From the IMG/VR virus record IMGVR_UViG_3300037488_002392: a stretch of 64,000 nt of DNA; one strand, given 5' to 3'. The position numbers and the translations under genes are program-made. Origin of the DNA: a virus (lineage: Duplodnaviria; Heunggongvirae; Uroviricota; Caudoviricetes). Below the pieces are notes generated by a model. The model did no database searches and was not told where the DNA came from. It saw only the letters and a program-made list of their open reading frames with translations. Positions 6,924 through 53,128 of this stretch are shown here, in pieces. Positions within the stretch are counted from its first letter, which is position 1, and every line of letters starts with the position of its first letter.

Positions 6924-7233
6924 AAGAATAGAGTTTTTATTTTGGATGCTGGTGGCATTGTTCATCCTTATTCCAATCCTAAATATGGTTGTTCAGAATT
7001 GGGTAAAGGACGGTGGAGCGTTAGACCAAACCTTTAATGCTTCTGATGTCAGTACGTGGAATGTTACGGGAGAAATAGTCACTGCAAATCAAACGGCGGC
7101 TATTGGTTTAACTCCACTAGAAAGGGCAGTTACACAGATGTATGTGCCTGCCTTTATCATATTCTTTGCGGTTATTACTCTCTATGTTTTGAGTAAAGGC
7201 GGTAACAATGGTGGGGGAGGGGCGTATAATTAG
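6916..7233 (+). CDS. Small membrane protein with a Gly-rich C-terminus.
   Basis: ORF with an N-terminal TM helix (FLFWMLVALFILIPIL) and a second TM near the C-terminus. The start codon is uncertain. Confidence 0.45.
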   Translation: MFKRIEFLFWMLVALFILIPILNMVVQNWVKDGGALDQTFNASDVSTWNVTGEIVTANQTAAIGLTPLERAVTQMYVPAFIIFFAVITLYVLSKGGNNGGGGAYN

Positions 7234-7290
7234 CTAAAATAGTTGATTATAATGATGAACTATGCTATAAAGATTGTATAGGAGTTTATT

Positions 7291-8250
7291 GTGGCTGATA
7301 TAAATAAAGACTCATACATAGCATCAAATGCAGTTCCTCCTATTAATGTGGAGCCATATAAAGATGGAAATCTCTGGGCACGGGATGGTCAGACGGTATG
7401 GGATGATAAAAAGAAGATGTGGGGGCAAACTAAATATATATACAAACCTGAAGTCATCCCTAATACAAAAGACCCCTATATAGTAACTGATGAGAGTGAG
7501 CCTTATGATAGTGGTGGTGGTATATGGAAACAAAGGGGGGTGACTTATTGGGATAGTGCCAAAAACATGTGGGTAACTGGTGACTATACATACCATCCTG
7601 AGATTACTGTCGCTGCAGATAAGGAAGCATATATAAAGAGACATAATGTAGGAGTGGCACAGAACAAAGCGGAAGAGTTAAGGGTCTTCAATGAGGGGCA
7701 ACTTAGAATGGCTATTTATCAAGGGATAAGGAATCGGAATACTGAGGCTGGAGTGTATGGGAATGAACAGGCATCATCGGTACCGTATACTTACCAAGAA
7801 TTTATTCCATCTCCTGCCGCAGCCCCTCTATCCCCTGATGCCATTAAGGAATGGGAAGATGCAAGATGGCGATGGGAAGCAGAAAACAGGGGGATTACAG
7901 AAAGAGTAGCAGATAGACCTGCATATTGGGAAGAGAAGACGGAATACATAAGTGCTGATGCTAAACCAGAGTGGGATATAAATATACCAAAGTGGGAAGA
8001 AGAGGTTGAATATATAAGTGCTGAAGACAAGCCAGAGTGGGAACAATATCGTACTCCGCCGTGGATAGAAAGGAGGAAAGAGGCTGAACAAAAAGCCATT
8101 GTTGCACCAATGCCGCAAGGGGACAAGTTGAGAATAAAGGATAGCCAGAGGGTTTCCCCAAGGCGTGATAATGTAATACAACGAGCTAAGTTAACTGCTG
8201 CCGTCAGTAAGGACAATATGACTCAAAGGACAGGTAGGGTATTAAGGTGA
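7291..8250 (+). CDS. Hypothetical protein with tandem KPEW(D/E) repeats and a C-terminal IVAPMPQG motif.
   Basis: GTG start with a TAGGAG SD. A sigma70-like promoter lies upstream. Repeated EYISA.DKPEWD segments. Shares the N-terminal G.W.RDG.T.WD...K.W motif with 32546..33112. Confidence 0.65.
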   Translation: MADINKDSYIASNAVPPINVEPYKDGNLWARDGQTVWDDKKKMWGQTKYIYKPEVIPNTKDPYIVTDESEPYDSGGGIWKQRGVTYWDSAKNMWVTGDYTYHPEITVAADKEAYIKRHNVGVAQNKAEELRVFNEGQLRMAIYQGIRNRNTEAGVYGNEQASSVPYTYQEFIPSPAAAPLSPDAIKEWEDARWRWEAENRGITERVADRPAYWEEKTEYISADAKPEWDINIPKWEEEVEYISAEDKPEWEQYRTPPWIERRKEAEQKAIVAPMPQGDKLRIKDSQRVSPRRDNVIQRAKLTAAVSKDNMTQRTGRVLR

Positions 8251-38658: not shown

Positions 38659-40071
38659 TCATACGTAAGGTGAGAACAGATGGGGCTTCTCAAGGGAGAG
38701 GTGGACGGCTGAGCCAGCCATTGCTTCAAATGCTCGTTGCCATTCATTGTTGTGCCAATCGCCTTTAGTGTGCGATATTTCGTGCAGTATGAGGGCAGTC
38801 ACGCTGGCGTTGATATTCTCAAACCATGCCTTGCCCAGTTTGGCAACATTGAATATCAGCGAACCCGAACCGTAACACGCTCCATATGCTCCTGTAAACT
38901 GGGAGACAAATTCTACATGGCATTCAGAGCCAACCAGTTCACGGTGGAGCATCTTGGCATACTCAGCTACCCTGAGCATCTCTGGAGTTGGGTCGTAGGG
39001 TTTGGCTACGCCAGCCTGAGCCTTGAAGATATCGCTGGAGCGTTGGAGTCCTTGGCCAGCGAATGCCTTGCGTTCCGCTTCGCTCAGGGTGCGACCATGA
39101 ATAACTTCATAGCCAGCCTGTACAGCTTTCTCATTGGCGTAGGCATCATTGCTCCATAATACGACCTTATCGCCATACCGTTTTGTCATGGTCTTTTTGA
39201 CGGCTTCGGGGTTGATATCGGGGTCTTCTACTGCCTGACGTACCCATGTGGCTGATGGGTCGGTGACCTCATCCACAACAGCCTCTAAGACCGTTTTGTA
39301 CACATCTTGCAGGTAGGAGTCACGGACGGTATCACGGTTGGGGGGGAGCGGTACTTTCTGAAGTACGTTAACGCTGAACTGGCAGGTTATTTCCTGTATT
39401 GGGATTCCCATCTCGTATAGGGTTGGCTTGACTCCGTTGGGCTGGTAGATTTCCAGAGTGGTCTGCCGTCTGGTAGGTCGCATCGGCTCTCCAGCACGTT
39501 CCTGTAATACGGTATCCAGCGTGGCTGGCAAAGTCTTGTATGGTTCATTGTACGGCATGGTCATGCCGTTTACGATGTAGGTAATTCCTTTCGGGGGAAG
39601 TAGTCTGCGTAGGTTCTCTACGATGCTGTCAGCCTGACGGTTTCCCCACGGCATGATGCACTCTACCGTTGTTCCTTTTGTAGCGGTGGGAGCGGTGCGT
39701 ACCTGTCTGCCACCGCTCTCAGGAAACAGGATGATTTTACCGCTGGTTATTATCCGTGCCGTTTTGGCTACGGAGATAATCTCCTTTTCTCCGATATTGA
39801 ACCTACCACGCACGGTGGGGTTCAATCGCTTGGGAGTGGTTCGCATGAGTATCCACGCATCGTCAATTTTGGAGAACCCAGCACCATCATCGTAACATAC
39901 GATTTTGGTCTTGCGTGGCTCAAGATTCGTGACCGTGACCTCACATCGGGTCACAGCTTCATCCCAACTATTGCTGACCAATTCCTTGACCAGTTGCCAC
40001 GGCTCACGACCCTCTTGCAGTTCCCTCATGCCTTGGTGGTCAATTTCAAAACGTGGTTTCTTATCTGTCAT
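38659..40071 (-). CDS. GHKL-type ATPase (HATPase_c-like N-terminal domain) fused to a C-terminal HExxH (ImmA/IrrE-like) metallopeptidase motif. Paralog A.
   Basis: N-box ELVSNSWDEA. G1 box DDGAGF. C-terminal ILHEISH...H. AAAAAGGAGGTGCAGATATG start context. A perfect TTGACA-N17-TATAAT promoter lies upstream on the minus strand. Confidence 0.6.
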   Translation of the reverse strand: MTDKKPRFEIDHQGMRELQEGREPWQLVKELVSNSWDEAVTRCEVTVTNLEPRKTKIVCYDDGAGFSKIDDAWILMRTTPKRLNPTVRGRFNIGEKEIISVAKTARIITSGKIILFPESGGRQVRTAPTATKGTTVECIMPWGNRQADSIVENLRRLLPPKGITYIVNGMTMPYNEPYKTLPATLDTVLQERAGEPMRPTRRQTTLEIYQPNGVKPTLYEMGIPIQEITCQFSVNVLQKVPLPPNRDTVRDSYLQDVYKTVLEAVVDEVTDPSATWVRQAVEDPDINPEAVKKTMTKRYGDKVVLWSNDAYANEKAVQAGYEVIHGRTLSEAERKAFAGQGLQRSSDIFKAQAGVAKPYDPTPEMLRVAEYAKMLHRELVGSECHVEFVSQFTGAYGACYGSGSLIFNVAKLGKAWFENINASVTALILHEISHTKGDWHNNEWQRAFEAMAGSAVHLSLEKPHLFSPYV

Positions 40072-42048: not shown

Positions 42049-42501
42049 CTATTCTCCTATCTGCCTTGCTATGCCGTACTCAGCTATAGTCTTATAGGTC
42101 TGATTTGTGATTGCTGCGGTATTGATTTCGCCAGATGCTACCACGGTGTAGTCACGTATAAGCCTTTTATTGGATACGCTCACGTGGTCACCGTGCATGT
42201 AATCGTTGGCGGTTGCCTGTTCATAGGCAGGGTCGTATCTGCCAGTTATGGGAGTCCAGATGATGCGGTCACCGATTGCCCCACCTGTTACCCTCTCACA
42301 GAGTGCTGAGAGCGTGGTGGCAGGGTTGCTCAGGTTCTTACGTGCTTCCAGTGTGTAGACCCACTCTGACGGCTCGCCAGCCATGCGGAACGCCAGCACG
42401 ATGCACCAAAGACTGCCCCTGCGGTCAGTCAAGAATTGCCCGATGTTGTATCTCATTTTAGGTGCTTTCATATTTAAACCCCCTTGATTATCATACTTCA
42501 T
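42049..42501 (-). CDS. Hypothetical protein. Alternative start at 42471 with an AAGGGGG SD.
   Basis: TAATG overlap with the stop of the upstream GHKL gene, suggesting translational coupling. Confidence 0.5.
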   Translation of the reverse strand: MKYDNQGGLNMKAPKMRYNIGQFLTDRRGSLWCIVLAFRMAGEPSEWVYTLEARKNLSNPATTLSALCERVTGGAIGDRIIWTPITGRYDPAYEQATANDYMHGDHVSVSNKRLIRDYTVVASGEINTAAITNQTYKTIAEYGIARQIGE

Positions 42502-44249
42502 TAGATAGCCACCTCAACCCCAAGGTCTTTGGATATCCGCTCTATCTCGCTCAGCAGTAGGTCAGGCTCATTCGCCCAGCACTCTATGAAAACAAATCCA
42601 TCGCAGTCGCTCTGCAAGAACCATTGCAATTTGGGGCTGAGAGTCCTGACCATATGATTGCGAACCGTATTTACCAGAGTGATATCGGGGGAGCGGAATA
42701 TGATGCCGTCATGCTTATCGTACATCATCTCGCCTTTAGCTACGAGTTTGAGTACAGTTGGCTCAGGCTCATGGCTGGCGTTCACGCCCATCTTGGCGTG
42801 TAGCTGGGCGGTCAGGCGTTCTACCTCACGCTCATCACGCTCTATCTGCTGAAGCAGTAGCAGTTCGGGAGCGTTGCCACCATCGGCTTTTTCGGGGTTC
42901 TCAGACCCCTCAGCGACCTCAACATCCTCAATAGGTATTGACGGGCAGGGGGCAGGGGATACCCTTTTCCTGAGCCTCTTAGGGGTCGTTTTGACGTTGG
43001 TCAGGAGTGCCATAGCTAATTTGCCACCGTAGTAGGTCAAATCAGCTTCAAACTCAGCGGAGCAGTCAGCATGACCGTAGACGAGATGGCACAATTCGTG
43101 GAAGAGGACTGCCATCGTTTTGTCAAGGTCATCGAGAATGGATATGTTGATGCGAATGACCTTGCCATCACACTCACCATCAGACCGCATTTTGCAAATC
43201 CTGACTGTATATTTGGTGGTTAGGTCGGGAGCGAATACTGGCTGTAGGATTGCCCTCGCTTTTGCAAGTATTGCACGTTGGCTGTCGGTCACGTTGACCA
43301 TGGAAGAGCGTGATGTATCCTTATGTACGACCTCGTAGTCCAGCTTTACGCCAGCATTGTTGAGGGTATGGCGTATGCTCCACGGCAGGGTTATGCATTT
43401 GAATCCCAGATAGCTGGCACGTGACGCTTGTCGTTCGGTCAGGCAAGCTTTGTTGCCATGTAACTCGTTGAAAGCTTTTTTCCATAGCCGTTTGTGTTCT
43501 GGAGTAAAGTAACAGTCAGCTTCCAAGCTATTACGCATCCCCTCGTCCTCGCAAGCTCTGATGATATCAGTGATGGCTTCATAGCTTTTGGTCTGCCTGA
43601 GAATGTTCTTGACCTCACGTGATACTACGTCACGATTGAGGACTGTTCTATCACGGTTCATGGCATCCTTGGCGGTGATGTTGTAACTGAGGATTGATTT
43701 CAGTTGTTCAGTCAATAGACCCTGCACGTAGATTGACCCAGCGTGATGCAGAATGTTCTTGTCGTACCTGTCACGTGGGGTGATGGCAAGGAAGAGTGAT
43801 TTGGCTTCGTCCAGTTCTGCCTGAGTGCAAGCGAACCTGACGATAGTGCCTTCTTTAGGGGTCACGCACTCGTCTATGTATATGGTCAAGACAGCCGTTC
43901 CTACGATGGAGTCTTCCATCTTGAACGTATACCGCTTGACAAGGCTCTCAGCGGTAATCCAGCTACCATTGCGGAGTAGCACCATAGCCCCCACTTTCAA
44001 GCCCTCACCGTACTGACCGATATCGTTGTTGGTTTTGGTAGTCTCACCAATAAGGAGACCGTTGGGGTGGAAGCCAGAGCCAAAGTCGGTGACCGTAGCT
44101 ACTCCAGCTTCCCACGTGATTACTGGCTTGGTGTGGGTATCCAGAGCGTTGGCAAGTATCTCACGTATGGCTTGGACTACAGTCCAGCCTTTGCAGTAAT
44201 TGGCGGTAAGACCCAAGGTTATGCTATTGGTCATTGTAGCTGTCGGCAT
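42501..44249 (-). CDS. GHKL-type ATPase fused to a C-terminal HExxH (ImmA/IrrE-like) metallopeptidase motif. Paralog B.
   Basis: N-box IREILANALDTH. G1 box TDFGSGF. G2 box GQYGEGLKVG. FHELCHLVYGH at about 43081-43110. SD GAGGTGGACGAATAATG. Confidence 0.65.
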   Translation of the reverse strand: MPTATMTNSITLGLTANYCKGWTVVQAIREILANALDTHTKPVITWEAGVATVTDFGSGFHPNGLLIGETTKTNNDIGQYGEGLKVGAMVLLRNGSWITAESLVKRYTFKMEDSIVGTAVLTIYIDECVTPKEGTIVRFACTQAELDEAKSLFLAITPRDRYDKNILHHAGSIYVQGLLTEQLKSILSYNITAKDAMNRDRTVLNRDVVSREVKNILRQTKSYEAITDIIRACEDEGMRNSLEADCYFTPEHKRLWKKAFNELHGNKACLTERQASRASYLGFKCITLPWSIRHTLNNAGVKLDYEVVHKDTSRSSMVNVTDSQRAILAKARAILQPVFAPDLTTKYTVRICKMRSDGECDGKVIRINISILDDLDKTMAVLFHELCHLVYGHADCSAEFEADLTYYGGKLAMALLTNVKTTPKRLRKRVSPAPCPSIPIEDVEVAEGSENPEKADGGNAPELLLLQQIERDEREVERLTAQLHAKMGVNASHEPEPTVLKLVAKGEMMYDKHDGIIFRSPDITLVNTVRNHMVRTLSPKLQWFLQSDCDGFVFIECWANEPDLLLSEIERISKDLGVEVAI

Positions 44250-44806: not shown

Positions 44807-45865
44807 TTAGAAGCTTTCCGCAGTCGCTCCTACTGGCAAAGCCAGACGGTCAGGCTGAATCGGGCGGTCAAGGTAATCGTAGGCAAGCTGGTGGATGGCG
44901 AGTGCTTTCTCGTTGTTGTAGTAATTGGCGGTTTCGGTGATAGCTGAGTAGATGCCGTACTTGGTGCGGTAATCGTCACCATGTACGTTGGCGGTCATGA
45001 CGTTAATCATCTGCTTGTACTCTTCAGCGGTCATAGCCGTTTTAGCTACACGTGCAATCTCGTCTGAGGTGCTGGTCACGAAAGTGGTGACAGCTTCCTT
45101 GAGTTTGGCGAGGATGCCAGAAGCTGTCAGCAAGCTGGAGTCTATGGCAGAGTTGATGCGGTCTTCCCAGCGGTCAGAATCACCGATATGCCTGATGCGG
45201 TAGGTCGTGCCATGTTTCATGGCTACTGCCTGATTACCGCAGAAGCATTGCCAGAGCAAATCAGCTACGGTGAACGAGCGGAGTCCAGTTTCGGAATTCA
45301 TAATGTACAGACCTGTCTTGGCTATATCCCCGACTCGCAAGGTCATCTTGGTTGCAGTATCGGGGAGAGCAAGGCTCATGTAAAAGCCGTCCATTGTGCA
45401 TTCAGAGTAGGTGACCTCAGTCTGACGACCAGCCAGTTTTCGCATTACATACTGGACGGCTTTGAGGTCAGGCATTTCGGTGCGGTACTCATCGGTTAGG
45501 ACTGCACGGCAAGCTGGTACGCCATTTGCACCGTGGAAGCCACGTATCAGCATCGGCTTTTTTTCAAAGTAGTTTGCGAACAAATAGCCGATGGCGTTTT
45601 CGGTCATGGAATTCGGGAGGCGGTCAACAAGGGTCTGATTGAAGCCAATCTTCTGGAGAAGCTGGCTCTGAGCATTGGGGGTAAGGGTCAGGGTCGGGTT
45701 ACCTTTATCAAATGGTACGAGGGCGAGGTCGCTGGGGCGAGTGAATGCTACACGGTACTGGTTGAGGGTGGTCATCTGGTCAAAGGGTTGCATGATTTTC
45801 TCACGGGCTTCAAGGGCTTCTGCTACTGCTTCAAGGGTCTTGTACTTAGTCAACATATGGGTCAC
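44807..45865 (-). CDS. DUF932-like phage/plasmid protein. This is the first gene of the leftward operon.
   Basis: AAAAGGAGAGTGACCCATATG. The motif IMNSETGLRSFTVADLLWQCFCGNQ resembles the DUF932 core (NS.DGS...R.vC.N). The assignment is tentative. Confidence 0.4.
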   Translation of the reverse strand: MTHMLTKYKTLEAVAEALEAREKIMQPFDQMTTLNQYRVAFTRPSDLALVPFDKGNPTLTLTPNAQSQLLQKIGFNQTLVDRLPNSMTENAIGYLFANYFEKKPMLIRGFHGANGVPACRAVLTDEYRTEMPDLKAVQYVMRKLAGRQTEVTYSECTMDGFYMSLALPDTATKMTLRVGDIAKTGLYIMNSETGLRSFTVADLLWQCFCGNQAVAMKHGTTYRIRHIGDSDRWEDRINSAIDSSLLTASGILAKLKEAVTTFVTSTSDEIARVAKTAMTAEEYKQMINVMTANVHGDDYRTKYGIYSAITETANYYNNEKALAIHQLAYDYLDRPIQPDRLALPVGATAESF

Positions 45866-46000
45866 TCTCCTTTTGCCTTAACCTTTTCGGTCAGGCTGTT
45901 TTTTATTTTGGTCGGGATTTTGCCCGACCCTGATAGTATGGACTCTTTTTTTGGATTTGTCAATACCTATTTATATACAGCTTCAAAATGTGGTCGGGGT

Positions 46001-46056
46001 GGACATATATAGAGGTAAAGCGGTCAGGCTGGGTCGGACATATATAGATGTAAAGC
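46001..46056. repeat. Two direct copies of a 21-bp motif, GGACATATATAGAGGTAAAGC and GGACATATATAGATGTAAAGC.
   Basis: 46001-46021 and 46036-46056, identical at 20 of 21 positions. Confidence 0.8.
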
Positions 46057-46394
46057 ATCTCCCAGCCGTCAGGGTCGGCTGTTTTTCAAGGGTTTAGGTC
46101 AATGGGTATTGAGAATACCGTGCTTTTTTAGGGGCAAACAGGCGATTCTGAGCGTTTTATGGGGGTAGGTCAGGGGTTAGTACCAATGGGGTGTAGGAAG
46201 TGAAAGTTGATGCTGTCCTACGTTCAGAAAATACGGCTCGTTTTTACATATGGGACTATACATAATGCGTTGTTTTCGGGGTCGTTTTTACCCTGTTTTC
46301 GGGGGTCTAAAATGCCCATTTCGGGTCAGCCGTTCTGTTTGACATAATCAATGGTCGGGGGCATGGATGGTCGCAATTGATTATAAATATCAAC

Positions 46395-46519
46395 ATTGAT
46401 TATGAATATCATTGATGATATGCAGGGTCGGTGACCCTGACCTCTCTGGCAGGGTCGGCAGGGGCGATTATGCAGAGTCGGGGTCGGTAGCTATAACATA
46501 AATGATATTCATAATCAAT
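46395..46519. repeat. 19-bp perfect inverted repeat (ATTGATTATGAATATCATT / AATGATATTCATAATCAAT) flanking a GC-rich core with GGGTCGG motifs. ATTGATTAT(A/G)AATATC direct repeats lie upstream.
   Basis: The arms are at 46395-46413 and 46501-46519. Direct repeats are at 46375-46410. Confidence 0.75.
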
Positions 46520-46611
46520 ATCGGTATCAGGGTGTTTTGGTTTTGAACCGTTTCGGTCAGGTTCTGGAGCGTATTCGTCCATAGCGGTGGCTATGCAGGC
46601 GGTGGCTTGGC

Positions 46612-46703
46612 TATGGACGAGCCAGCTTCAATTATGGACGAATAGCTTTAGCTTATGGACGAATAGCTTTAGCTTATAGACGAATAGCTTTAGCTTATGG
46701 ACG
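46612..46703. repeat. Tandem array of about 4.5 copies of the 21-bp unit TATGGACGAATAGCTTTAGCT.
   Basis: Copies are at 46633-46653, 46654-46674 and 46675-46695 (one mismatch), with degenerate flanking copies. Confidence 0.85.
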
Positions 46704-46784
46704 TTTTTAGCTTGCGAGCATAGGCAACCACCCACGTGGATAAGCTCTCAATCCGTGAGCAAACGGTTTCGGATTGGAACGCTC

Positions 46785-46825
46785 TATAGCCGTGCGAGAG
46801 TAGGCTTATGCTCGTGACTGAGCAT
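46785..46825. repeat. Palindrome GCTTATGCTC-gtgact-GAGCATAAGC.
   Basis: Perfect 10-bp inverted arms. Related GAGCATAG(G) words recur nearby (46725, 46870). Confidence 0.6.
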
Positions 46826-47065
46826 AAGCGGGGAGTCCACGTGCATAGGCTTGGCTTTGCCTGTGGGCGAGCATAGTCTCCTGGGGAGGGGAAGGGGCAA
46901 GGACGGGGTTGAAATCGGGGGTTGATGATGATTATAGTAAATTTATCATCATTATGGTTGACATAATACGTTCAGTAGAATGGAGTAGGGGTTGGTGCAA
47001 CGCAAATCATATTGCTAATATTTAACGCAACACAAAGGTAAAGGCGAACTATTTTAGAAAGAAAC

Positions 47066-47094
47066 TTGACAGTGAAATCAACCTATTGTATATT
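47066..47094 (+). promoter_or_regulatory. Sigma70-like promoter TTGACA-N17-TATATT for the rightward small-gene array.
   Basis: Exact -35 consensus with a 17-nt spacer and a TATATT -10. The first gene ATG at 47137 is 43 nt downstream. Confidence 0.5.
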
Positions 47095-47136
47095 TGAATC
47101 ATAAAGGTTGATTATAATAATCAAGTTGAAAAAGAA

Positions 47137-47457
47137 ATGTACAGACAGAGTAAGCAGGACAAAATAGCCAAGGATGTGAAGAAACTGGTGTTGGGCAAGT
47201 CTCGTTATCATGATGGGAATTGGAGTTTTGCGGGGTTCAAGGTTACGAAAACTAAGTCAAAAGTAAGGAAACCTTTAATTGATATTAAGACAAGCAAGGG
47301 AGAGCGTGGTGCTACCAATATCAGTATTGACTATCCAGATTCATGGCGTAATCCTTTTAAAAAGAAATCTCCTGCAAAGAAGGCTATCAGGATAAAGGTT
47401 AAGAACAAGGCTGACTTCATAGTCGATAGTAAGGGCAACGTCAGAAGGAATATATAA
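47137..47457 (+). CDS. Small basic protein.
   Basis: First ORF after the promoter. K/R-rich, 106 aa. Confidence 0.5.
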   Translation: MYRQSKQDKIAKDVKKLVLGKSRYHDGNWSFAGFKVTKTKSKVRKPLIDIKTSKGERGATNISIDYPDSWRNPFKKKSPAKKAIRIKVKNKADFIVDSKGNVRRNI

Positions 47458-47482
47458 TAAAGGATATAGAAGGAGAAAGAAA

Positions 47483-47653
47483 ATGGCAGTAAAAAAGAAG
47501 GTTTGTAAGAAGAAGGGAAGTTGGAATAGTGTTGTAGTAGGACATACCAAAGAGGTTACTGATATAATGGAAAAAAAGTTTAGAAAAGAAGGCAGGTTTG
47601 TCAAAAGGGTAGGAAGGACTATAACTTATAAAGAGAAAGATAGAAAATGGTAA
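47483..47653 (+). CDS. Small basic protein of 56 aa (MAVKKKVCKKKGSW...).
   Basis: AAGGAGAAAGAAAATG context. Confidence 0.55.
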   Translation: MAVKKKVCKKKGSWNSVVVGHTKEVTDIMEKKFRKEGRFVKRVGRTITYKEKDRKW

Positions 47654-47667
47654 TAAGGAGAAAGAAA

Positions 47668-47922
47668 ATGACGGTTAAAAAGAGTTACACTTTGACACCC
47701 AAGGCAATATGGGACAAGGCGTGTAAGTATGATAAAATTCCTACGGGTTCAAAGTTCGTGGTATTCAGCCCCAAGAACCCTTGGGCAAAAGAATATGATA
47801 AAGCCATGAAAATGGTTGGAACAGCACACAAACACGGGTTAATGGACGTTAGTAACTGGTCAAAGGTAAAAAAGGCGGGGGAGTGGGGGAAAAGGAAGGC
47901 TTGCACAAAGAAAAAGAAATAA
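47668..47922 (+). CDS. Small basic protein of 84 aa.
   Basis: AAGGAGAAAGAAAATG context, identical to the previous gene's RBS. Confidence 0.6.
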   Translation: MTVKKSYTLTPKAIWDKACKYDKIPTGSKFVVFSPKNPWAKEYDKAMKMVGTAHKHGLMDVSNWSKVKKAGEWGKRKACTKKKK

Positions 47923-47936
47923 AGGAGATTAGTTAT

Positions 47937-48179
47937 ATGAAGTATGTAGCTTATAAAGGAACACCTTACGAGAAGAAGGTAATAATCCCAGAGAAAAAGA
48001 AGTTTGGAAGCCAAAGTTATGAGTTAGCTGATGTATTTGATAATTATGGTAGGCATCAGTTCCATGAGACGGCTATACGCTTTGCAGAACATGTCAGGTA
48101 TTATCGGGGTAATAACGCAAGGGTGGTAGCAAGTTCAGGTTTTACGGCTGTTTATGCAGGTAACAAGAAAAAGAAATAA
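47937..48179 (+). CDS. Small basic protein of 80 aa.
   Basis: AAAGGAG SD. Ends in ...GNKKKK. Confidence 0.55.
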   Translation: MKYVAYKGTPYEKKVIIPEKKKFGSQSYELADVFDNYGRHQFHETAIRFAEHVRYYRGNNARVVASSGFTAVYAGNKKKK

Positions 48180-48202
48180 AGGATATACAGGAGAATAATA
48201 AG

Positions 48203-48337
48203 ATGGCAGTAAAACAGAAAAACCCGTGGGACGGCAAGAAGCCCAAGAAAAGCATTGACTCATACCCCAATCCCTTCAAGAAAATGGGGGGATTGCCATC
48301 CAACCCTTGGAAGAAAAAGGCTAAGAAAGATAAATAA
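48203..48337 (+). CDS. Small basic protein of 44 aa.
   Basis: CAGGAGAATAATAAGATG. NPW repeats and a K-rich tail. Confidence 0.45.
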   Translation: MAVKQKNPWDGKKPKKSIDSYPNPFKKMGGLPSNPWKKKAKKDK

Positions 48338-48369
48338 TTATTATAAAATAATTTTGCAGGAGAAATAAT

Positions 48370-48645
48370 ATGACAACACAACCAAGGTCAGAACCGATTC
48401 CAGTCCGCACTATGATGATGCCGAACCCCGCAGAGGTGCTGCCAATGTACGAATGTAAGTTCTGTGGTAATCAGTGGATACCCCGAAAGAACGTGCCCAA
48501 GGTGTGCCCGTCATGCCACAGAAAAAAATGGTGGACAGGCGATGTTCGCATAGAACATAGGGAAGCTAATATTGGAATAGCGAGAGTGCGTCCTGCAACT
48601 ACGGTAAGGAAGAGGGTTGTTAAAAGGACACCAAGGGGTAAGTAA
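48370..48645 (+). CDS. Zinc-ribbon small basic protein.
   Basis: CAGGAG SD. CKFC...CPSC. Confidence 0.6.
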   Translation: MTTQPRSEPIPVRTMMMPNPAEVLPMYECKFCGNQWIPRKNVPKVCPSCHRKKWWTGDVRIEHREANIGIARVRPATTVRKRVVKRTPRGK

Positions 48646-49317
48646 ATGGAAAGTGGCGACCAATCTCAGATAGTTGATTCCAAAGGTAGGCATCGTGGTC
48701 TGAAGCAATGGGTCATTTGCCCATCTTGTGAAGTTGGTAGGTGGCAAAGGATAGACCACGTAAAGACTACTGCTCATACTGGTTTTTGCCAAAAGTGCCA
48801 TAATAAATATCGCACTTTACATATGGAAGAACATGGTAGCTGGAAAGGTGGACGAGTTGTCAGGAAAGATGGTTATATAGATGTCCATCTTGCCAAAGAC
48901 GACCCCTTCTATCCAATGACAAGAGTAGATGGGTATATCCGTGAACATAGGCTTGTTATGGCACGCCATTTGGGGAGATGCTTATTCTCTTGGGAAGTAG
49001 TGCGTCACCTTAATGGCAACAGGAGCGATAATAGGATAGAGAATCTCCAGTTACTGAGTAATAAAAATACTCATATGCCATCAATGGTTGTGCAGGCTAC
49101 TATAAAAAGGATGCAAAAGAAGATTGATACCCTAGAGGGGCAATTGATTGAGGCTCATAGGCAACTTAAAACTGAAGGCTATGAGATAATATCAGAAGCT
49201 GAAGACATAATAGAGTCTAAGAGCCAAAAGATTAAACATTATGATAATTCCAAGCAACAAGGTGTCCAATATACTTTGTGGCAACAGGGTAGAGAAACAA
49301 ACGGATACTTAGTATAA
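48646..49317 (+). CDS. HNH endonuclease (homing-endonuclease type).
   Basis: Zn-ribbon N-terminus (CPSC...CQKCH). The HNH motif HRLVMARHLGR...VVRHLNGNRSDNRIENLQLL. Confidence 0.7.
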   Translation: MESGDQSQIVDSKGRHRGLKQWVICPSCEVGRWQRIDHVKTTAHTGFCQKCHNKYRTLHMEEHGSWKGGRVVRKDGYIDVHLAKDDPFYPMTRVDGYIREHRLVMARHLGRCLFSWEVVRHLNGNRSDNRIENLQLLSNKNTHMPSMVVQATIKRMQKKIDTLEGQLIEAHRQLKTEGYEIISEAEDIIESKSQKIKHYDNSKQQGVQYTLWQQGRETNGYLV

Positions 49318-49336
49318 AGGAATAAGGAGAAAGTAA

Positions 49337-49606
49337 ATGATATTAAGACAGAAGTTAGCAAAGCCCGTTAATGGTTACTGGGATGGTGGAGCCAAACAAG
49401 TGTTTGAGTGGGAGATAGAGGGAAGACCAAAGAAGGACAAGGGTGGTACATATGTAAAAGTGGGAAGCTTTGAAGCCAACCATTTCTTTCATGTAGCCAA
49501 AGGAAAGACAGAGAAGCAAACACTTAGTTATGCTCGACAGCATCTTAAAGCATCTACACGTATTCCAAGCACTTTTGAAATTGTAAAAAAGGAAAAATAT
49601 AGGTAA
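49337..49606 (+). CDS. Small basic protein.
   Basis: AAGGAGAAAGTAAATG. Confidence 0.55.
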   Translation: MILRQKLAKPVNGYWDGGAKQVFEWEIEGRPKKDKGGTYVKVGSFEANHFFHVAKGKTEKQTLSYARQHLKASTRIPSTFEIVKKEKYR

Positions 49607-49620
49607 GAAGGAGAAAGAAA

Positions 49621-49884
49621 ATGAGTAGACCAATCAGGGCAACAATAGAAAACATAAAGAAGTATGGTAACCAGAAGGGAGTAGTTATGTATTGCCCAAG
49701 GACTGGAGAGCAGTACAGTGCTACTCCAGGTGATTACTTCATGACTCCGCCAAAGCACGTATTCAAAGGAGAAAAGGGTGCTCCAATGTATCTTGGTAGA
49801 CCGTTTTCGGGTATACAGCCTATTACGGGCACTAAAAAGAAAAAGTCGGGGACTTGGTCAAAGACAAATAAAAGGAGGAAATAG
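49621..49884 (+). CDS. Small basic protein with a ...TKKKKSGTWSKTNKRRK tail.
   Basis: AAGGAGAAAGAAAATG context. The tail is related to the KKKGTFAKK family. Confidence 0.6.
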   Translation: MSRPIRATIENIKKYGNQKGVVMYCPRTGEQYSATPGDYFMTPPKHVFKGEKGAPMYLGRPFSGIQPITGTKKKKSGTWSKTNKRRK

Positions 49885-49886
49885 AA

Positions 49887-50090
49887 ATGGACTTTTATAC
49901 GTTAGAAGGAGCAAGCAATCTTGCCAAGAAGAGAGGCAAGGCAACGTGTTTTTGGAACCCCACAGGAGTAAGCGGGATGGGTAACCATAAATGGTGTTAT
50001 GACTCCAGTGGTACGCTCAAAGAGTACAAGAAACCCAGCAAATATTCCACAAAAATAGCATTTGATGGAAAGGGTAAAAGAGTAATTTAA
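49887..50090 (+). CDS. Small basic protein.
   Basis: AAAAGGAGGAAATAGAAATG. Confidence 0.55.
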   Translation: MDFYTLEGASNLAKKRGKATCFWNPTGVSGMGNHKWCYDSSGTLKEYKKPSKYSTKIAFDGKGKRVI

Positions 50091-50105
50091 AAGGAGGAAG
50101 TCTTA

Positions 50106-50252
50106 ATGAAAATCTATTGTCTACAGTGCAAAAAGAGGTACGAAATCGACAAGGTCACCTACCGCATAATAAAAGGTAGGGGCGGAAAGCGTAAGATGGC
50201 ACAGGGACGATGCCCAAAGGGGCACAAGGTCAATAAGTTTGTAAAGATGTAA
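50106..50252 (+). CDS. Zinc-ribbon small basic protein of 48 aa.
   Basis: AAGGAGGAAGTCTTAATG. CLQC...CPKGH. Confidence 0.55.
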   Translation: MKIYCLQCKKRYEIDKVTYRIIKGRGGKRKMAQGRCPKGHKVNKFVKM

Positions 50253-50268
50253 AAAGGAGTGGAATAAG

Positions 50269-50565
50269 ATGTTAAAGAAAAAGAAAACCTGTAAAAGGGT
50301 AGTTAGGAAATCTCCAATAAAGAGGGCTACCAGACGAAGGGGTAAATGGGCTGAAGAGTCTGGTGGTGTTCATGTTATATCAGACCCCAAGGGCATCTCT
50401 CGCTACCATATGCTGAGTCAATACCATGCTGCTAAATTAGAAGGGTTAGGAATGAAACATAGTAGTGGTAGGTCTATCTTGGCTCACATAAAGAAAACGT
50501 ATGGCTATAAAGGCTCAAGGGATGAAGTTCTGAAAAAATTCAGGTCTAAAATAGATAATATGTAG
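50269..50565 (+). CDS. Small basic protein (MLKKKKTCKR... family).
   Basis: AAAAAGGAG SD. Confidence 0.6.
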   Translation: MLKKKKTCKRVVRKSPIKRATRRRGKWAEESGGVHVISDPKGISRYHMLSQYHAAKLEGLGMKHSSGRSILAHIKKTYGYKGSRDEVLKKFRSKIDNM

Positions 50566-50577
50566 GAGATATGCAAA

Positions 50578-50736
50578 ATGGGAGTAAGGACAAAGAGAGC
50601 AGGAAGCCACCCATTTGCTAAGAAAATAAAAAAGGAGGAGAAAAAGATGGCATACACGAAAGCAAAGAGAAAGGCAGCCGCAAAGAAAGCCCTCAAGACT
50701 AAGAGGAAGAGGTACGGCAAGAAACTGCACAGGTAA
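50578..50736 (+). CDS. Small very basic protein. Alternative start at 50647 (MAYTKAKRKAAAKK...).
   Basis: GTAGGAG SD for the 50578 start. AAGGAGGAG SD for the internal ATG. Confidence 0.4.
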   Translation: MGVRTKRAGSHPFAKKIKKEEKKMAYTKAKRKAAAKKALKTKRKRYGKKLHR

Positions 50737-50802
50737 AAACCTTGGGGGATGATAGTATCATAATGGTACTGGCATCCCTTAGAAGGTAAAAGGAGAATCG
50801 AA

Positions 50803-51036
50803 ATGGCAACAAAGAAAGTAGTAAAGTGGTATAACCCTATGGTTCACTCAGGGTGGGACAAAGATATGACTACACTTGGGCGAAGGCGAAAAGCGATAAT
50901 TGCCCATAAAACGTATTTGGCTGCGGGACGTAGTTTACAAGCCTTATCGAATGTTACGAGAGACCCGAAGACGAAACGTCTAAGTGCATTGGACGCTCGT
51001 TATTTCTTCAGGAAACATCAGGAGACAGGGAAGTAG
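50803..51036 (+). CDS. Small basic protein.
   Basis: AAAAGGAGAATCGAAATG. Confidence 0.55.
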   Translation: MATKKVVKWYNPMVHSGWDKDMTTLGRRRKAIIAHKTYLAAGRSLQALSNVTRDPKTKRLSALDARYFFRKHQETGK

Positions 51037-51045
51037 GAGAATATT

Positions 51046-51225
51046 ATGGACAATTGGCGAAGATGGTATAGTTTCAGGACTAAGAAAGAGTTACAGAAGG
51101 CTGACAATATGTTACGCAAATCTTCAGTAGGTTTTGTCACTAAGATACGTAAGGATGAGCCTAATAGTGTGTATACAAAAGGTAGTTATACCTTATTATA
51201 TCGTAAGAAGAAAGGGAAAATGTAA
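51046..51225 (+). CDS. Small basic protein of 59 aa.
   Basis: GTAGGAGAATATTATG. Confidence 0.5.
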   Translation: MDNWRRWYSFRTKKELQKADNMLRKSSVGFVTKIRKDEPNSVYTKGSYTLLYRKKKGKM

Positions 51226-51243
51226 ATAAAAGGAGATAATAAA

Positions 51244-51435
51244 ATGAGAAAAGTAAAAACACTTCAGGGATTACATGATATCAGTACATATCGTAACTGG
51301 AAAATCACCTTTCCTTCAATGACCAAGAAGTATATGTATAGTGGCAGTAAGGCGGATGCAGTAGCAAAGGCTAATGCTATTGGCAAGAGCGCAAAATGGC
51401 CTTACAGTCCTAAAATACGTGAGATAAAGATTTAA
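51244..51435 (+). CDS. Small basic protein.
   Basis: AAAAGGAGATAATAAAATG. Confidence 0.55.
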   Translation: MRKVKTLQGLHDISTYRNWKITFPSMTKKYMYSGSKADAVAKANAIGKSAKWPYSPKIREIKI

Positions 51436-51446
51436 GGATATTTGAA

Positions 51447-51713
51447 ATGAAAAAGAAGAATACTGGTCAAACAAGGTTTGTGGCAGAATACACATCATCT
51501 TTGGGGCAACATGGAACTGCGAGTTTTAACGCAAAGACGTATGCTTCTGCCTACAAGAAAGCAGCTAATAAGATTAAAGATAAGCCTAAGTGGGCAATTG
51601 GTGCAGTAGCCCCAAAAAGTGATAAAAAATTGGACACTACTCCATTAGGCAGTAAATATCGTGAGACAGTTAATAAAATAAAGAAAGAAGGATACTTTAA
51701 GTATAGGTCGTAA
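51447..51713 (+). CDS. Small basic protein.
   Basis: AAGGA SD. K-rich. Confidence 0.5.
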   Translation: MKKKNTGQTRFVAEYTSSLGQHGTASFNAKTYASAYKKAANKIKDKPKWAIGAVAPKSDKKLDTTPLGSKYRETVNKIKKEGYFKYRS

Positions 51714-51716
51714 ATT

Positions 51717-52181
51717 ATGCCAACAAATTGGTCAGTAATGCTCAAGGATAATCCTTTAATTGTAAATACATACAAAAGAAAGGTTGAGTTCGCACGGCAA
51801 CAAAAGAGAGACAAAAGCCAAAGTGATGAACTTACAAGGGAAGATTTGGAGCCAATACTGAAGAATGCATTAAATATGGTAAAGACTAATACTCCCCCTG
51901 GCATGAAAGCCCCCAAAGATACCGATGAGTTAATAATGATGTTCAGGGACAGTGGAATAGCAGGAGTATTTGGAATAAGGGACAGTGAAATGAGCGCAAT
52001 AGGCGGGGCTGCAATAGAGCAACCAACAGGCGGAGAAGGCGGAATTACTTTAGAACAATTGATGGCGATGGCTCAACAGCAACAGCCGATAGTGGCTCCG
52101 ATGCCCCAGGGATATCCACAAGCACCAAGGATGCCAATGCAGAAAATAAGTCCCCAAACGGGTAAAATGGGGGGATTTTGA
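51717..52181 (+). CDS. Hypothetical protein with a Q/P/M-rich C-terminus carrying a PIVAPMPQG motif. Paralog of 52400..53128.
   Basis: N-terminal similarity (LKDNPLIVNTYKRKV vs LKNYPIILTHYKKKI). The shared motif sits near the C-terminus. Confidence 0.55.
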   Translation: MPTNWSVMLKDNPLIVNTYKRKVEFARQQKRDKSQSDELTREDLEPILKNALNMVKTNTPPGMKAPKDTDELIMMFRDSGIAGVFGIRDSEMSAIGGAAIEQPTGGEGGITLEQLMAMAQQQQPIVAPMPQGYPQAPRMPMQKISPQTGKMGGF

Positions 52182-52390
52182 CTATGAGTAACAAAGGTTT
52201 CTTAGTAGGAATAAATAGGATTGCTTCAGATGAATTGTGTGGCAAGAAACGTAAATCTGCTACTATAACTAAACATAATCTACCAAAAGCAGAGGCTAAT
52301 TCTTTGAAGGAAAAGAAGAAGTCATCTGGCAAGGCGTGTAAAGTTACACAACAGGCTAATAAAAAGTGGACTGTAAAATATTTTAGGTAG
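52178..52390 (+). CDS. Small basic protein.
   Basis: ATGA overlap with the upstream gene. K-rich. Confidence 0.45.
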   Translation: MTMSNKGFLVGINRIASDELCGKKRKSATITKHNLPKAEANSLKEKKKSSGKACKVTQQANKKWTVKYFR

Positions 52391-52399
52391 GTAAATAAT

Positions 52400-53128
52400 A
52401 TGAGATGGACAGAAACCTTAAAGAATTACCCCATCATCCTTACTCATTACAAGAAGAAAATCGCTGCGAAGCGAAGGATGAAAGCCTCACAGGGGCTGGA
52501 TGAAACTCTGACTACGCAGGATATGGAACAGATAGGAAACGATATTATCAAGACGATGAAGGAGAACCTTCCTGACGATGTAATTAAGCCTGCGAATTAT
52601 GATGATGTGGTAAACAGTTTAAGAGGAAATGATGTAGGCAGGTCACTGGGATTCAGGGATGGCGATTTCAACGCTAAACCCGCTCCAGTAGAAAATCCTC
52701 CTTACCAAGAAACTGTCACGGAAGAGGTAGTTACTGAGCAAATGAATCCTTCCGCAGATGTTCCGACTACTGAAGAGATTGCACAAGCGGAATCAATGGC
52801 GACAGAACAACCATCGGAAGATGCTCTTGTAGAAGAGGCACTTCCTGTAGAGGAACCTTTGCCAGTTGAAGAACCTGTAGTAGAAGAAACAGTTACTGAA
52901 GAAGTTGTTGCTCCCGTAGTGACTGATGTAATAGAGGGGGTAGGGAATGTGGCACAGCGGATAGCGGATGAATTCAAACCCCTCTCTCCGATTGCTGCTC
53001 CTCTTCCATACCAGACACAGTATGGGCAGACTAATACAAATAGACCAGCGGGTGTTCCGAAACCCAATAATGTCCCACAGGTAGGCACATCAAAATTTTG
53101 GAATGATGACCTCAAATTCTGGAGTTAG
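52400..53128 (+). CDS. Hypothetical acidic protein with a (V/E/T)-rich repeat region and a PIAAPLP motif.
   Basis: Paralogous N-terminus to 51717..52181. Low-complexity EE/VT/PV repeats. Confidence 0.55.
   Translation: MRWTETLKNYPIILTHYKKKIAAKRRMKASQGLDETLTTQDMEQIGNDIIKTMKENLPDDVIKPANYDDVVNSLRGNDVGRSLGFRDGDFNAKPAPVENPPYQETVTEEVVTEQMNPSADVPTTEEIAQAESMATEQPSEDALVEEALPVEEPLPVEEPVVEETVTEEVVAPVVTDVIEGVGNVAQRIADEFKPLSPIAAPLPYQTQYGQTNTNRPAGVPKPNNVPQVGTSKFWNDDLKFWS

Follow-up and report, generated by a model that had tools for sequence, protein, structure and literature searches.

A long noncoding region between divergent gene blocks of a novel phage-like genome: phased repeats, operators, promoters and a possible replication origin

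The 64,000-nucleotide stretch analyzed here, referred to throughout as the window, belongs to the virus record IMGVR_UViG_3300037488_002392 (Caudoviricetes) and makes up about two-thirds of a JGI metagenome contig of 92,815 bp, recognized through protein matches of exact identity, of which some 29 kb lie beyond it. The window is densely packed with open reading frames (ORFs) except at 45857-47136, the sole long ORF-free stretch, which separates a leftward from a rightward block of genes. This raises the question, “what is this noncoding region for?” An initial annotation, made from the sequence, had suggested a replication origin or a master regulatory region. We consider it very likely that the region works at the level of DNA, as a protein-binding control region, and not as RNA or protein. 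Its promoters and operators are well supported, as far as sequence can tell, as a predicted regulatory switch for two divergent early transcription units, and for a phased array of short repeats within this early-control region our leading reading, to which we assign a probability of roughly 40%, is an iteron-type origin.

The ORF map bore out the initial annotation in that no other long noncoding stretch exists in the window and that this one splits the leftward and rightward blocks; only the left bound moved, from 45866 to 45857, because the left gene begins at ATG 45856 behind the Shine-Dalgarno sequence AAGGAG. Rightward genes occupy 1-33.7 kb, leftward genes approximately 33.5/33.8-45.9 kb, and a second rightward block, which opens at 47137 with a run of small, very basic ORFs, extends from 47.1 to 64 kb. 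The GC fraction is 0.40-0.53 across most of the region, similar to that of the left block, and reaches 0.60 only at 46800-46900, which disagrees with the locally elevated GC described for it initially. The repeats listed in the initial annotation are all present, and each of them goes beyond chance. The region had no nucleotide match among 50,697 phage records (INPHARED) or 72,556 plasmids (PLSDB), and it is not duplicated anywhere else in the window.

Every relative in which the region could be compared was found in an assembly of a metagenome or a sequencing run (JGI, ENA and Logan). The left gene led through one close homologue cluster to loci L001-L003, contigs of 14 homologue clusters of the 106-amino-acid gene on the right supplied loci L128-L139, and the promoter-operator pattern of the rightward promoter P_R supplied further JGI loci (L143-L155). 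At least seven distinct related variants cover the region, which is present end to end in L001, L128 and L152 and complete in L131 except for part beside the leftward promoter P_L. Two lineages are represented, and in the lineage of L128, L131 and L152 the left gene, which is DUF932-like, has 30-33% amino acid identity to its counterpart in the window.

Phased sites, operators and promoters

The most regular component of the region is an array of five (Y)TATGGACG(T) cores on the plus strand at 46612-46703, placed exactly 21 bp apart (core starts 46612, 46633, 46654, 46675 and 46696). Tandem Repeats Finder reported a tandem repeat at 46632-46703 (3.4 copies, 96%), which together with the five cores upholds the 21-bp array noticed initially. 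Relatives (n = 10) carry 5, 7, 8, 9 or 10 TATGGACG cores with a period of 20-21 bp, and across 47 distinct 21-nt units the core is invariant and the spacers are near-random (0.06-0.9 bit per position). An invariant core, diverged spacers and a fixed period are the pattern that arises from selection on a protein-binding site held at a fixed helical phase.

A second, in-phase set of ACGAGCATAG-type sites occupies 46714-46876 and includes a palindrome with 10-bp arms (GCTTATGCTC/GAGCATAAGC) that had been recognized initially at 46785-46825 and in fact lies at 46804-46829. The reverse complement of ACGAGCATAG, CTATGCTCGT, differs from CTATGGACGT in the central dinucleotide only. Sites of this type flank the TATGGACG array on both sides in steps of 20-22 bp; a single inverted iteron-type site, CGTCCATA, on the minus strand at 46576-46583 aligns with ACGAGCATAG in relatives. 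Of the 24 copies of TATGNNCG in the window, 10 fall within 46035-46875 and 9 of these within 46576-46875. The combined TATGGACG and ACGAGCATAG set has a period of approximately 21 bp (Rayleigh p 1e-3 to 1e-5), and block 46714-46876 retains 61-78% identity to relatives. Together the two types form, between the cluster of operators and the promoters, a platform of 12-20 short predicted binding sites that share one helical face.

Operator-type sites follow the consensus TTGATTAT-N-ATAATCAA, which has seven matches in the window against 0.85 expected. Four copies are in the region (46377, 46396, 46503 in inverted orientation, and 47108), and a fifth is at 7243. O1 (46377-46393) and O2 (46396-46412) stand side by side on the plus strand, read TTGATTAT(A/G)AATATCA(A/T), and are conserved in relatives, except that L001 lacks O1. 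The inverted copy O3 (46502-46519, minus strand), 109 bp from O2, supplies the right-hand arm of the perfect 19-bp inverted repeat that had been located at 46395 and 46501 and was found again here (I1/I3); the repeat is therefore two operator sites in opposite orientation. Between O2 and O3, at 46413-46501, lies a core with three GGTCGG, TATGCAG(G/A) motifs and a small hairpin, GGGTC-GGT-GACCC. In L130 this core has lost 33 nt and both operators are kept; because only the TTGATTAT half stays complementary in L129 and L130, the arms appear to be maintained as separate sites and not as a stem.

O4 (47108-47124, plus strand) is a perfect palindrome, TTGATTATAATAATCAA, that begins 13 nt past the -10 element of P_R, a spacing of 12-15 nt in all relatives. 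The outlying copy (7225-7259, plus strand) repeats this arrangement far from the region: within 7205-7260 a G-run, GGTGGGGGAGGGGCG, is followed by a TATAAT and, 12 nt on, by TTGATTATAATGATGAA, upstream of ORF 7291-8250, and 19 nt of it match the operator at P_R in L139, a variant, without a difference. One site at P_R, an upstream cluster of three (approximately 600 bp away) and a distant copy form the layout of a predicted repressor or regulator operator. The initial annotation had taken the ATTGATTAT(A/G)AATATC repeats for iterons; the repeats are real, and we read them as operators because copies follow the -10 of P_R by 13 nt and the TATAAT at 7243. A search beside the region for the regulator itself detected no helix-turn-helix (HTH) or ribbon-helix-helix protein.

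The predicted promoters, of the host sigma-70 type, all face outward, P_L driving the DUF932-like operon, and P2 and P_R the small basic early genes. P_L, a sigma-70-type promoter found by promoter scan on the minus strand at 45935-45963, reads TTGACA-17-CATACT, and alignments place TTGACA-17-TAACAT in L001 and TTGACA-17-TACAAT in L128 at the same point, so that the -35 and the spacing are conserved. At the predicted 5' end of the leftward mRNA is a stem-loop, GGTCGGG/CCCGACC (45910-45929, minus strand), identical in L128 and present as a variant in L001, which we infer to be a 5' stabilizer. P2 (46922-46949, plus strand) is a promoter-like palindrome, TTGATG-16-TATCAT with arms ATGATGAT/ATCATCAT, in which many alignment columns are invariant. 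P_R (47066-47094, plus strand) is a near-consensus early promoter, TTGACA-17-TATATT with TGT upstream, at the position 47066 given initially; its score of 11/12 is the best promoter match in 45-64 kb, and TTGACA and TGTATATTTGAAT are invariant in 12 sequences. Promoters conserved on both strands, operators among them and the recurrence of the operator at 7243 favor the master regulatory region that had been suggested.

Relatives also answered the initial call to check the repeats for conservation: the array, operators, promoters and GGTC polarity (see below) are all kept. In comparisons of L128 and L131 with the window, identity over the core at 46200-47136 is 63-80% for most modules (block A; the inverted-repeat core and its operators; block D; P2 to P_R) and falls to 34-58% where the array and a G-run vary in length. 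Distances between modules vary among relatives mostly by 10-11 bp or multiples of this (107/117; 195/226/237), which suggests a helical-phase constraint, as judged from few independent events.

A two-copy TATGGACG pattern gave only chance matches in IMG/VR, and searches with TATAGCCGTGCGAGAG and with a block D 21-mer yielded a single chance match or none. A three-copy TATGGACG pattern matched 12 loci, of which 11 were perfect 21-bp tandem repeats inside genes, encoding 7-residue protein repeats, and the twelfth, L087, was an unrelated noncoding tandem repeat. The 76.9-kb contig behind L140 and L151, picked up with the P_R-operator pattern, was a chance match in coding DNA.

To the left of the operators is conserved block A (46201-46375, plus strand), defined from alignments and composed of GGACTATACATAATG, three TTTTCGGGGTC units and TTGACATAAT (46339-46348). 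The last of these occurs in every relative that covers the block and is possibly an extended -10 promoter; as window-wide repeated promoter motifs, TTGACATAAT and GGACTATACATAATG were not enriched. The segment between P_L and block A, 45966-46200, is weakly conserved (33-46%). At 46001-46056 on the plus strand it holds the two 21-nt direct repeats, GGACATATATAGAGGTAAAGC and GGACATATATAGATGTAAAGC, that had been reported at 46001 and 46036 and that we recovered as family D4 (20/21 identical); L131 also has two copies, and the sequence of L001 and L128 differs there. In relatives an extra small leftward ORF occupies this segment, between P_L and the conserved core (L128 791-1012, minus strand; L131 3-152, minus strand; L152 about 1789-2060); it carries the HxxxCxxC motif once or twice, a motif like the one that binds zinc in anti-sigma factors, and is missing from the window and L001.

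A one-strand GGTC(G/A)G cluster

The left half of the region is marked by a different repeat, GGTC(G/A)G, whose copies cluster on the plus strand from 45602 to 46561, are unphased and reach approximately 260 nt into the start of the leftward gene. Within 45602-46555 there are 27 GGTC on the plus strand against 3 GACC, that is, minus-strand copies, and all three of the latter are partner arms of hairpins. Within 45889-46555 the plus strand has 13 GGTC(A/G)G (8 GGTCGG, 4 GGTCAGG and 1 GGTCAGC) and 17 GGTC in total, and the minus strand has 2 GGTC(A/G)G (2-3 motifs). The initial annotation had counted about 16 GGTCGG/GGTCAGG in 600 bp; the cluster stands, its count becomes 13-17, and it continues to 45602.

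The excess is far from chance: GGTCGG was observed 8 times where 0.12 is expected (p about 1e-12), and inside the left gene the motif occurs 19 times compared with 12.8 under synonymous-codon permutations (p = 0.0045). Only the six bases of the motif are informative positions, and no helical phasing of the GGTC sites was found. In relatives polarity and density are kept even where the sequence is unalignable (12-21 GGTC against 0-8 GACC), and the motif is nearly absent from the half of the region that contains the iterons and promoters. The cluster is the one truly unexplained feature of the region. It might mark a directional process such as staged DNA entry like that of T5, helicase priming or loading on one strand, or Chi-like attenuation of a host exonuclease. 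That the cluster belongs to a new class of polar cis signals, in a phage lineage itself new, governing such a process together with the phased array, is a speculative proposal that we rate as quite improbable.

Origin of replication and competing readings

The suggestion that the region contains a replication origin draws on the iteron signature of the array (a core of 8 bp that does not vary, repeated 5-10 times at a period of 20-21 bp among diverged spacers) and on an AT-rich, low-stability stretch near it, with a conserved G-run ahead of that stretch. The G-run block (46881-46918, plus strand), just before P2, holds a canonical G-quadruplex motif at 46883-46908. This and a second at 45677-45698, both on the plus strand, are the only canonical motifs in the window, the minus strand having none; of 8 relatives, 5 have the strict motif and the others are still G-rich. 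The sequence that follows, 46920-47136, has 25-40% GC and is among the approximately 1% least stable of the window.

If the array is an origin, an oligomerizing protein, encoded by the phage or by its host, would coat one face of the helix over 300-450 bp, as Rep does at iterons. The bound protein would bend or wrap the DNA and open the adjacent G-run and AT-rich segment at 46881-47136, and transcription from P2 and P_R may assist the opening. The one-strand GGTC(G/A)G cluster could then supply loading or priming sites for leftward synthesis or, alternatively, sites for a helicase-type initiator.

Several observations weigh against an origin. Initiator, helicase, primase and polymerase genes are not recognizable in the 64-kb window by Pfam or PHROGs, and the flanking ORFs and most window ORFs are without a Rep, helicase or primase match. 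For the 106-amino-acid protein encoded beside the region, a candidate binding protein, the predicted structure had a pLDDT (predicted local distance difference test score) of 50 and was unusable, and a profile search against the PDB returned nothing. DnaA boxes (TTATCCACA, with at most one mismatch) number 25 in the window compared with 22.6 expected, one of them in the region. The AT-rich stretch ranks only about 8th-12th in instability within the window, and the promoters that it holds also explain its AT-richness. A copy number that varies from 5 to 10 is commoner in centromeres and control arrays than in minimal origins. Cumulative GC skew, the check proposed initially, has a shallow minimum at 40-43 kb and not at 46-47 kb, but it climbs along the rightward blocks and stays level across the leftward one, and because skew follows gene direction the test is uninformative on this window and speaks neither for nor against an origin. 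The origin suggested by the initial annotation thus remains plausible for its iteron signature and neighboring AT-rich stretch and goes unsupported by initiator genes, DnaA boxes or skew.

Comparison with known origins gives a similarly divided picture. Lambda ori, P1 oriR/incA, R6K gamma, pSC101 and RK2 oriV are origins built on iterons, and the region is like them in having conserved-core direct repeats at about two helical turns, extra inverted or flanking sites and an adjacent AT-rich stretch. It is unlike them in that no recognizable Rep gene stands at the array, DnaA boxes show no enrichment, the core spans only 8-10 bp, the 5-10 copies are joined by a second site type, and phage and plasmid records show no sequence similarity to it. 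Because no adjacent Rep gene is recognizable and DnaA boxes are not in excess, the region cannot be classed as a classical iteron origin. Shorter iterons of 5-8 bp serve the helicase-initiators of P4, the Staphylococcus aureus pathogenicity islands (SaPIs) and SV40, the last with GAGGC pentamers and 21-bp repeats as its short repeated initiator sites, and in P4 ori/crr and SaPI ori sets of motifs flank an AT-rich region and adjoin the initiator gene. The region shares with the P4 and SaPI origins many copies of 6-8-bp motifs within a few hundred base pairs beside an AT-rich stretch, but here the copies all point in one direction and no initiator gene is seen.

Origins also occur in divergent early/late intergenic regions, as in Lactococcus phage c2 and in polyomavirus control regions. 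The region resembles these in being gene-free, with bidirectional promoters and short repeated sites, its origin being a prediction; it differs in that there is no homology and the GGTC(G/A)G copies are on one strand over about 950 bp. At the left end of T7, one-strand heptamer repeats beside the terminal repeat are followed by the tandem early promoters A1-A3, a likeness that extends to an irregular one-strand array of short motifs upstream of tandem strong host-type early promoters. T7 genes, however, all run one way and the T7 repeats abut the terminal repeat, whereas the flanks here diverge. The region appears to resemble iteron origins and control regions in layout and to match none by sequence. 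It is unusual to find a phased array of two motifs together with a reused operator and a long one-strand cluster of hexamers, although each of the three has precedents.

The same sites could do all their work in transcription. Nucleoprotein complexes of a comparable kind are built at Mu O1-O3, by phi29 p4/p6 and by SPO1 TF1, and the TATGGACG/ACGAGCATAG array and TTGATTAT operators might bind phage regulators that switch the divergent promoters with no part in replication. Two conserved promoters follow the array at 200-370 bp, their spacing from it being conserved, the operator is reused at the promoter-like site at 7243, no replication gene is detectable nearby, and the anti-sigma-like zinc ORF of relatives, together with weak HTH and sigma-70 region-4 matches of the 530-amino-acid protein at 60419-62011, hints at phage-specific control of transcription. 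A purely transcriptional platform is nonetheless a somewhat doubtful account of the whole, since 12-20 phased sites over 300-450 bp far exceed known phage operators, the GGTC(G/A)G cluster, polar and unphased, has no evident part in controlling promoters, and no regulator gene was identified. Tandem phased repeats whose number varies from 5 to 10 among close relatives are also typical of centromeres and inc arrays, and the array might be a parC/sopC/incA-type site of a plasmid-like prophage, bound by a partition adaptor or used in Rep handcuffing. We think this very unlikely: neither the flanking ORFs nor the other window ORFs tested included a ParA, ParM or ParB-type gene, the first downstream gene encodes a basic protein of 106 residues and not an ATPase, and neither integrase or plasmid replication genes nor similarity to PLSDB was detected.

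A role at the ends of the packaged DNA was considered because of phage T5, whose Repeat Region 3, the injection stop signal (iss), is an untranslated segment of about 1.2 kb with a 131-bp unit of inverted repeat, spacer and inverted repeat, nine direct repeats, palindromes and conservation above that of neighboring ORFs (Davison, bioRxiv 10.1101/866236). What defines the T5 element is its pairs of DnaA boxes and its place at the boundary of the left terminal repeat (bioRxiv 10.1101/866236). The architecture here is closely similar: at least 1 kb of untranslated DNA, more conserved than nearby ORFs, with an inverted repeat-spacer-inverted repeat unit (124 bp from O2 to O3, compared with 131 bp in T5), a run of direct repeats and palindromes. 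The region comes just ahead of the first early genes, and the polarity of the motif cluster would fit a directional process, for example entry, packaging or exonuclease attenuation. That the region is at or beside the genome ends or a terminal repeat, serving DNA entry or packaging after the manner of the T5 element or of the short one-strand repeats of T7, is still unlikely in our judgment. DnaA-box pairs are absent, which keeps the region from being classed as a T5-type iss, and the inverted-repeat arms are TTGATTAT-type sites; no second copy of any part of the region is present within the window, the ends of at least 20 short related contigs are scattered and not stacked at one point, and no T5-type pre-early genes, other T5-like genes or tRNAs were found.

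Readings at the level of RNA or protein fare worst. The one ORF of note within the region, of 57 amino acids on the minus strand at 46409-46582, is interrupted in relatives, which have no conserved ORF there. A long structured noncoding RNA or 5' leader might run rightward from TTGACATAAT at 46339, or leftward, with the repeats serving as RNA motifs, for instance to soak up a protein. Further candidate -10 elements facing right (ACATAAT at 46258, 46340 and 46959) would allow for such a transcript, and segment 46700-46935 folds better than its shuffles, with z about -3.1; the z value is, however, the same on both strands, which points to palindromic DNA rather than RNA, and that of block A is near 0. 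A leftward transcript would be C-rich and G-poor. RNAalifold gave weak consensus structures with no covariation (covariation terms +0.23 and +0.39 kcal/mol), the pairs of long stems never varying, and in 45700-47300 Rfam gave no match at the gathering score and three at chance level (E about 5) when E values up to 10 were admitted. The strict 20-21-bp period and spacing steps of approximately 10 bp are properties of duplex DNA, and the inverted-repeat arms lose complementarity in L129 and L130. The long untranslated leader or noncoding RNA that the initial annotation had named as its alternative is accordingly disfavored by the Rfam and covariation results, and we regard it as extremely improbable.

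The lineage is known so far from metagenome assemblies only, and almost none of its genes resembles anything with an assigned function; of the features seen in it, the noncoding region is conserved best and lends itself most readily to interpretation. TATGGACG, ACGAGCATAG, TTGATTAT-N-ATAATCAA, GGTC(G/A)G and the promoters could be used to find the binding proteins, the origin, the early switch and metagenome relatives. A GGTC(G/A)G cluster that proved to mark a directional process would join the short list of known polar DNA signals, whereas a region that proved to be no more than an origin with promoters would be an ordinary case, if a well-documented one.

Flanking genes and the remainder of the window

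The window appears to come from a phage-like genome that is large and highly novel. Its few family matches are of phage type (HNH_3 and NUMOD3 endonucleases, DUF2341/fn3 surface proteins and an SPFH protein), several further proteins match PHROGs of unknown function, and searches of the window for tRNAs and for Rfam families found none. The largest ORF, of 6708 amino acids (8849-28975, plus strand), has no Pfam family above threshold and no sequence relative in the PDB; part of it is matched by phrog_2563, a PHROG of unknown function, and it contains 30-bp and 15-bp tandem repeats at 28304-28536. With no Pfam or PDB matches, it was set aside as a clue to phage type, for example, to an N4-like virion RNA polymerase with hairpin promoters.

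On the right, the first gene (47137-47457) encodes the basic 106-amino-acid protein, which has 14 further metagenomic homologue clusters, and about 20 consecutive small plus-strand ORFs of 50-106 amino acids, extremely rich in Lys and Arg, fill 47137-52400; those tested had no significant Pfam or PHROG match. At 48646-49317 is an HNH_3 endonuclease gene that is present in L129, L130 and L132 and missing at the same position in L133, the pattern expected of a mobile homing-endonuclease insertion.

On the left, the DUF932-like gene (44807-45856, minus strand) adjoins the region as the first gene of the leftward operon. Its distant homologues include genes of Faecalibacterium phage Roos and Pelagibacter phage HTVC112P (PP479939.1, MN698246.1). 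The HTVC112P homologue comes early in an operon that diverges from the gene of an XRE-type regulator, and the Roos homologue is in the rightward block, divergent from the integrase side. Farther into the leftward block, the minus-strand genes at 42501-44249 and 38659-40071 encode two paralogues with a GHKL-type ATPase domain, HATPase_c_3, for which only the 38659-40071 protein reaches the Pfam cut-off; large phages of Moorella, Exiguobacterium, Vibrio and others encode proteins distantly related to that of 42501-44249.

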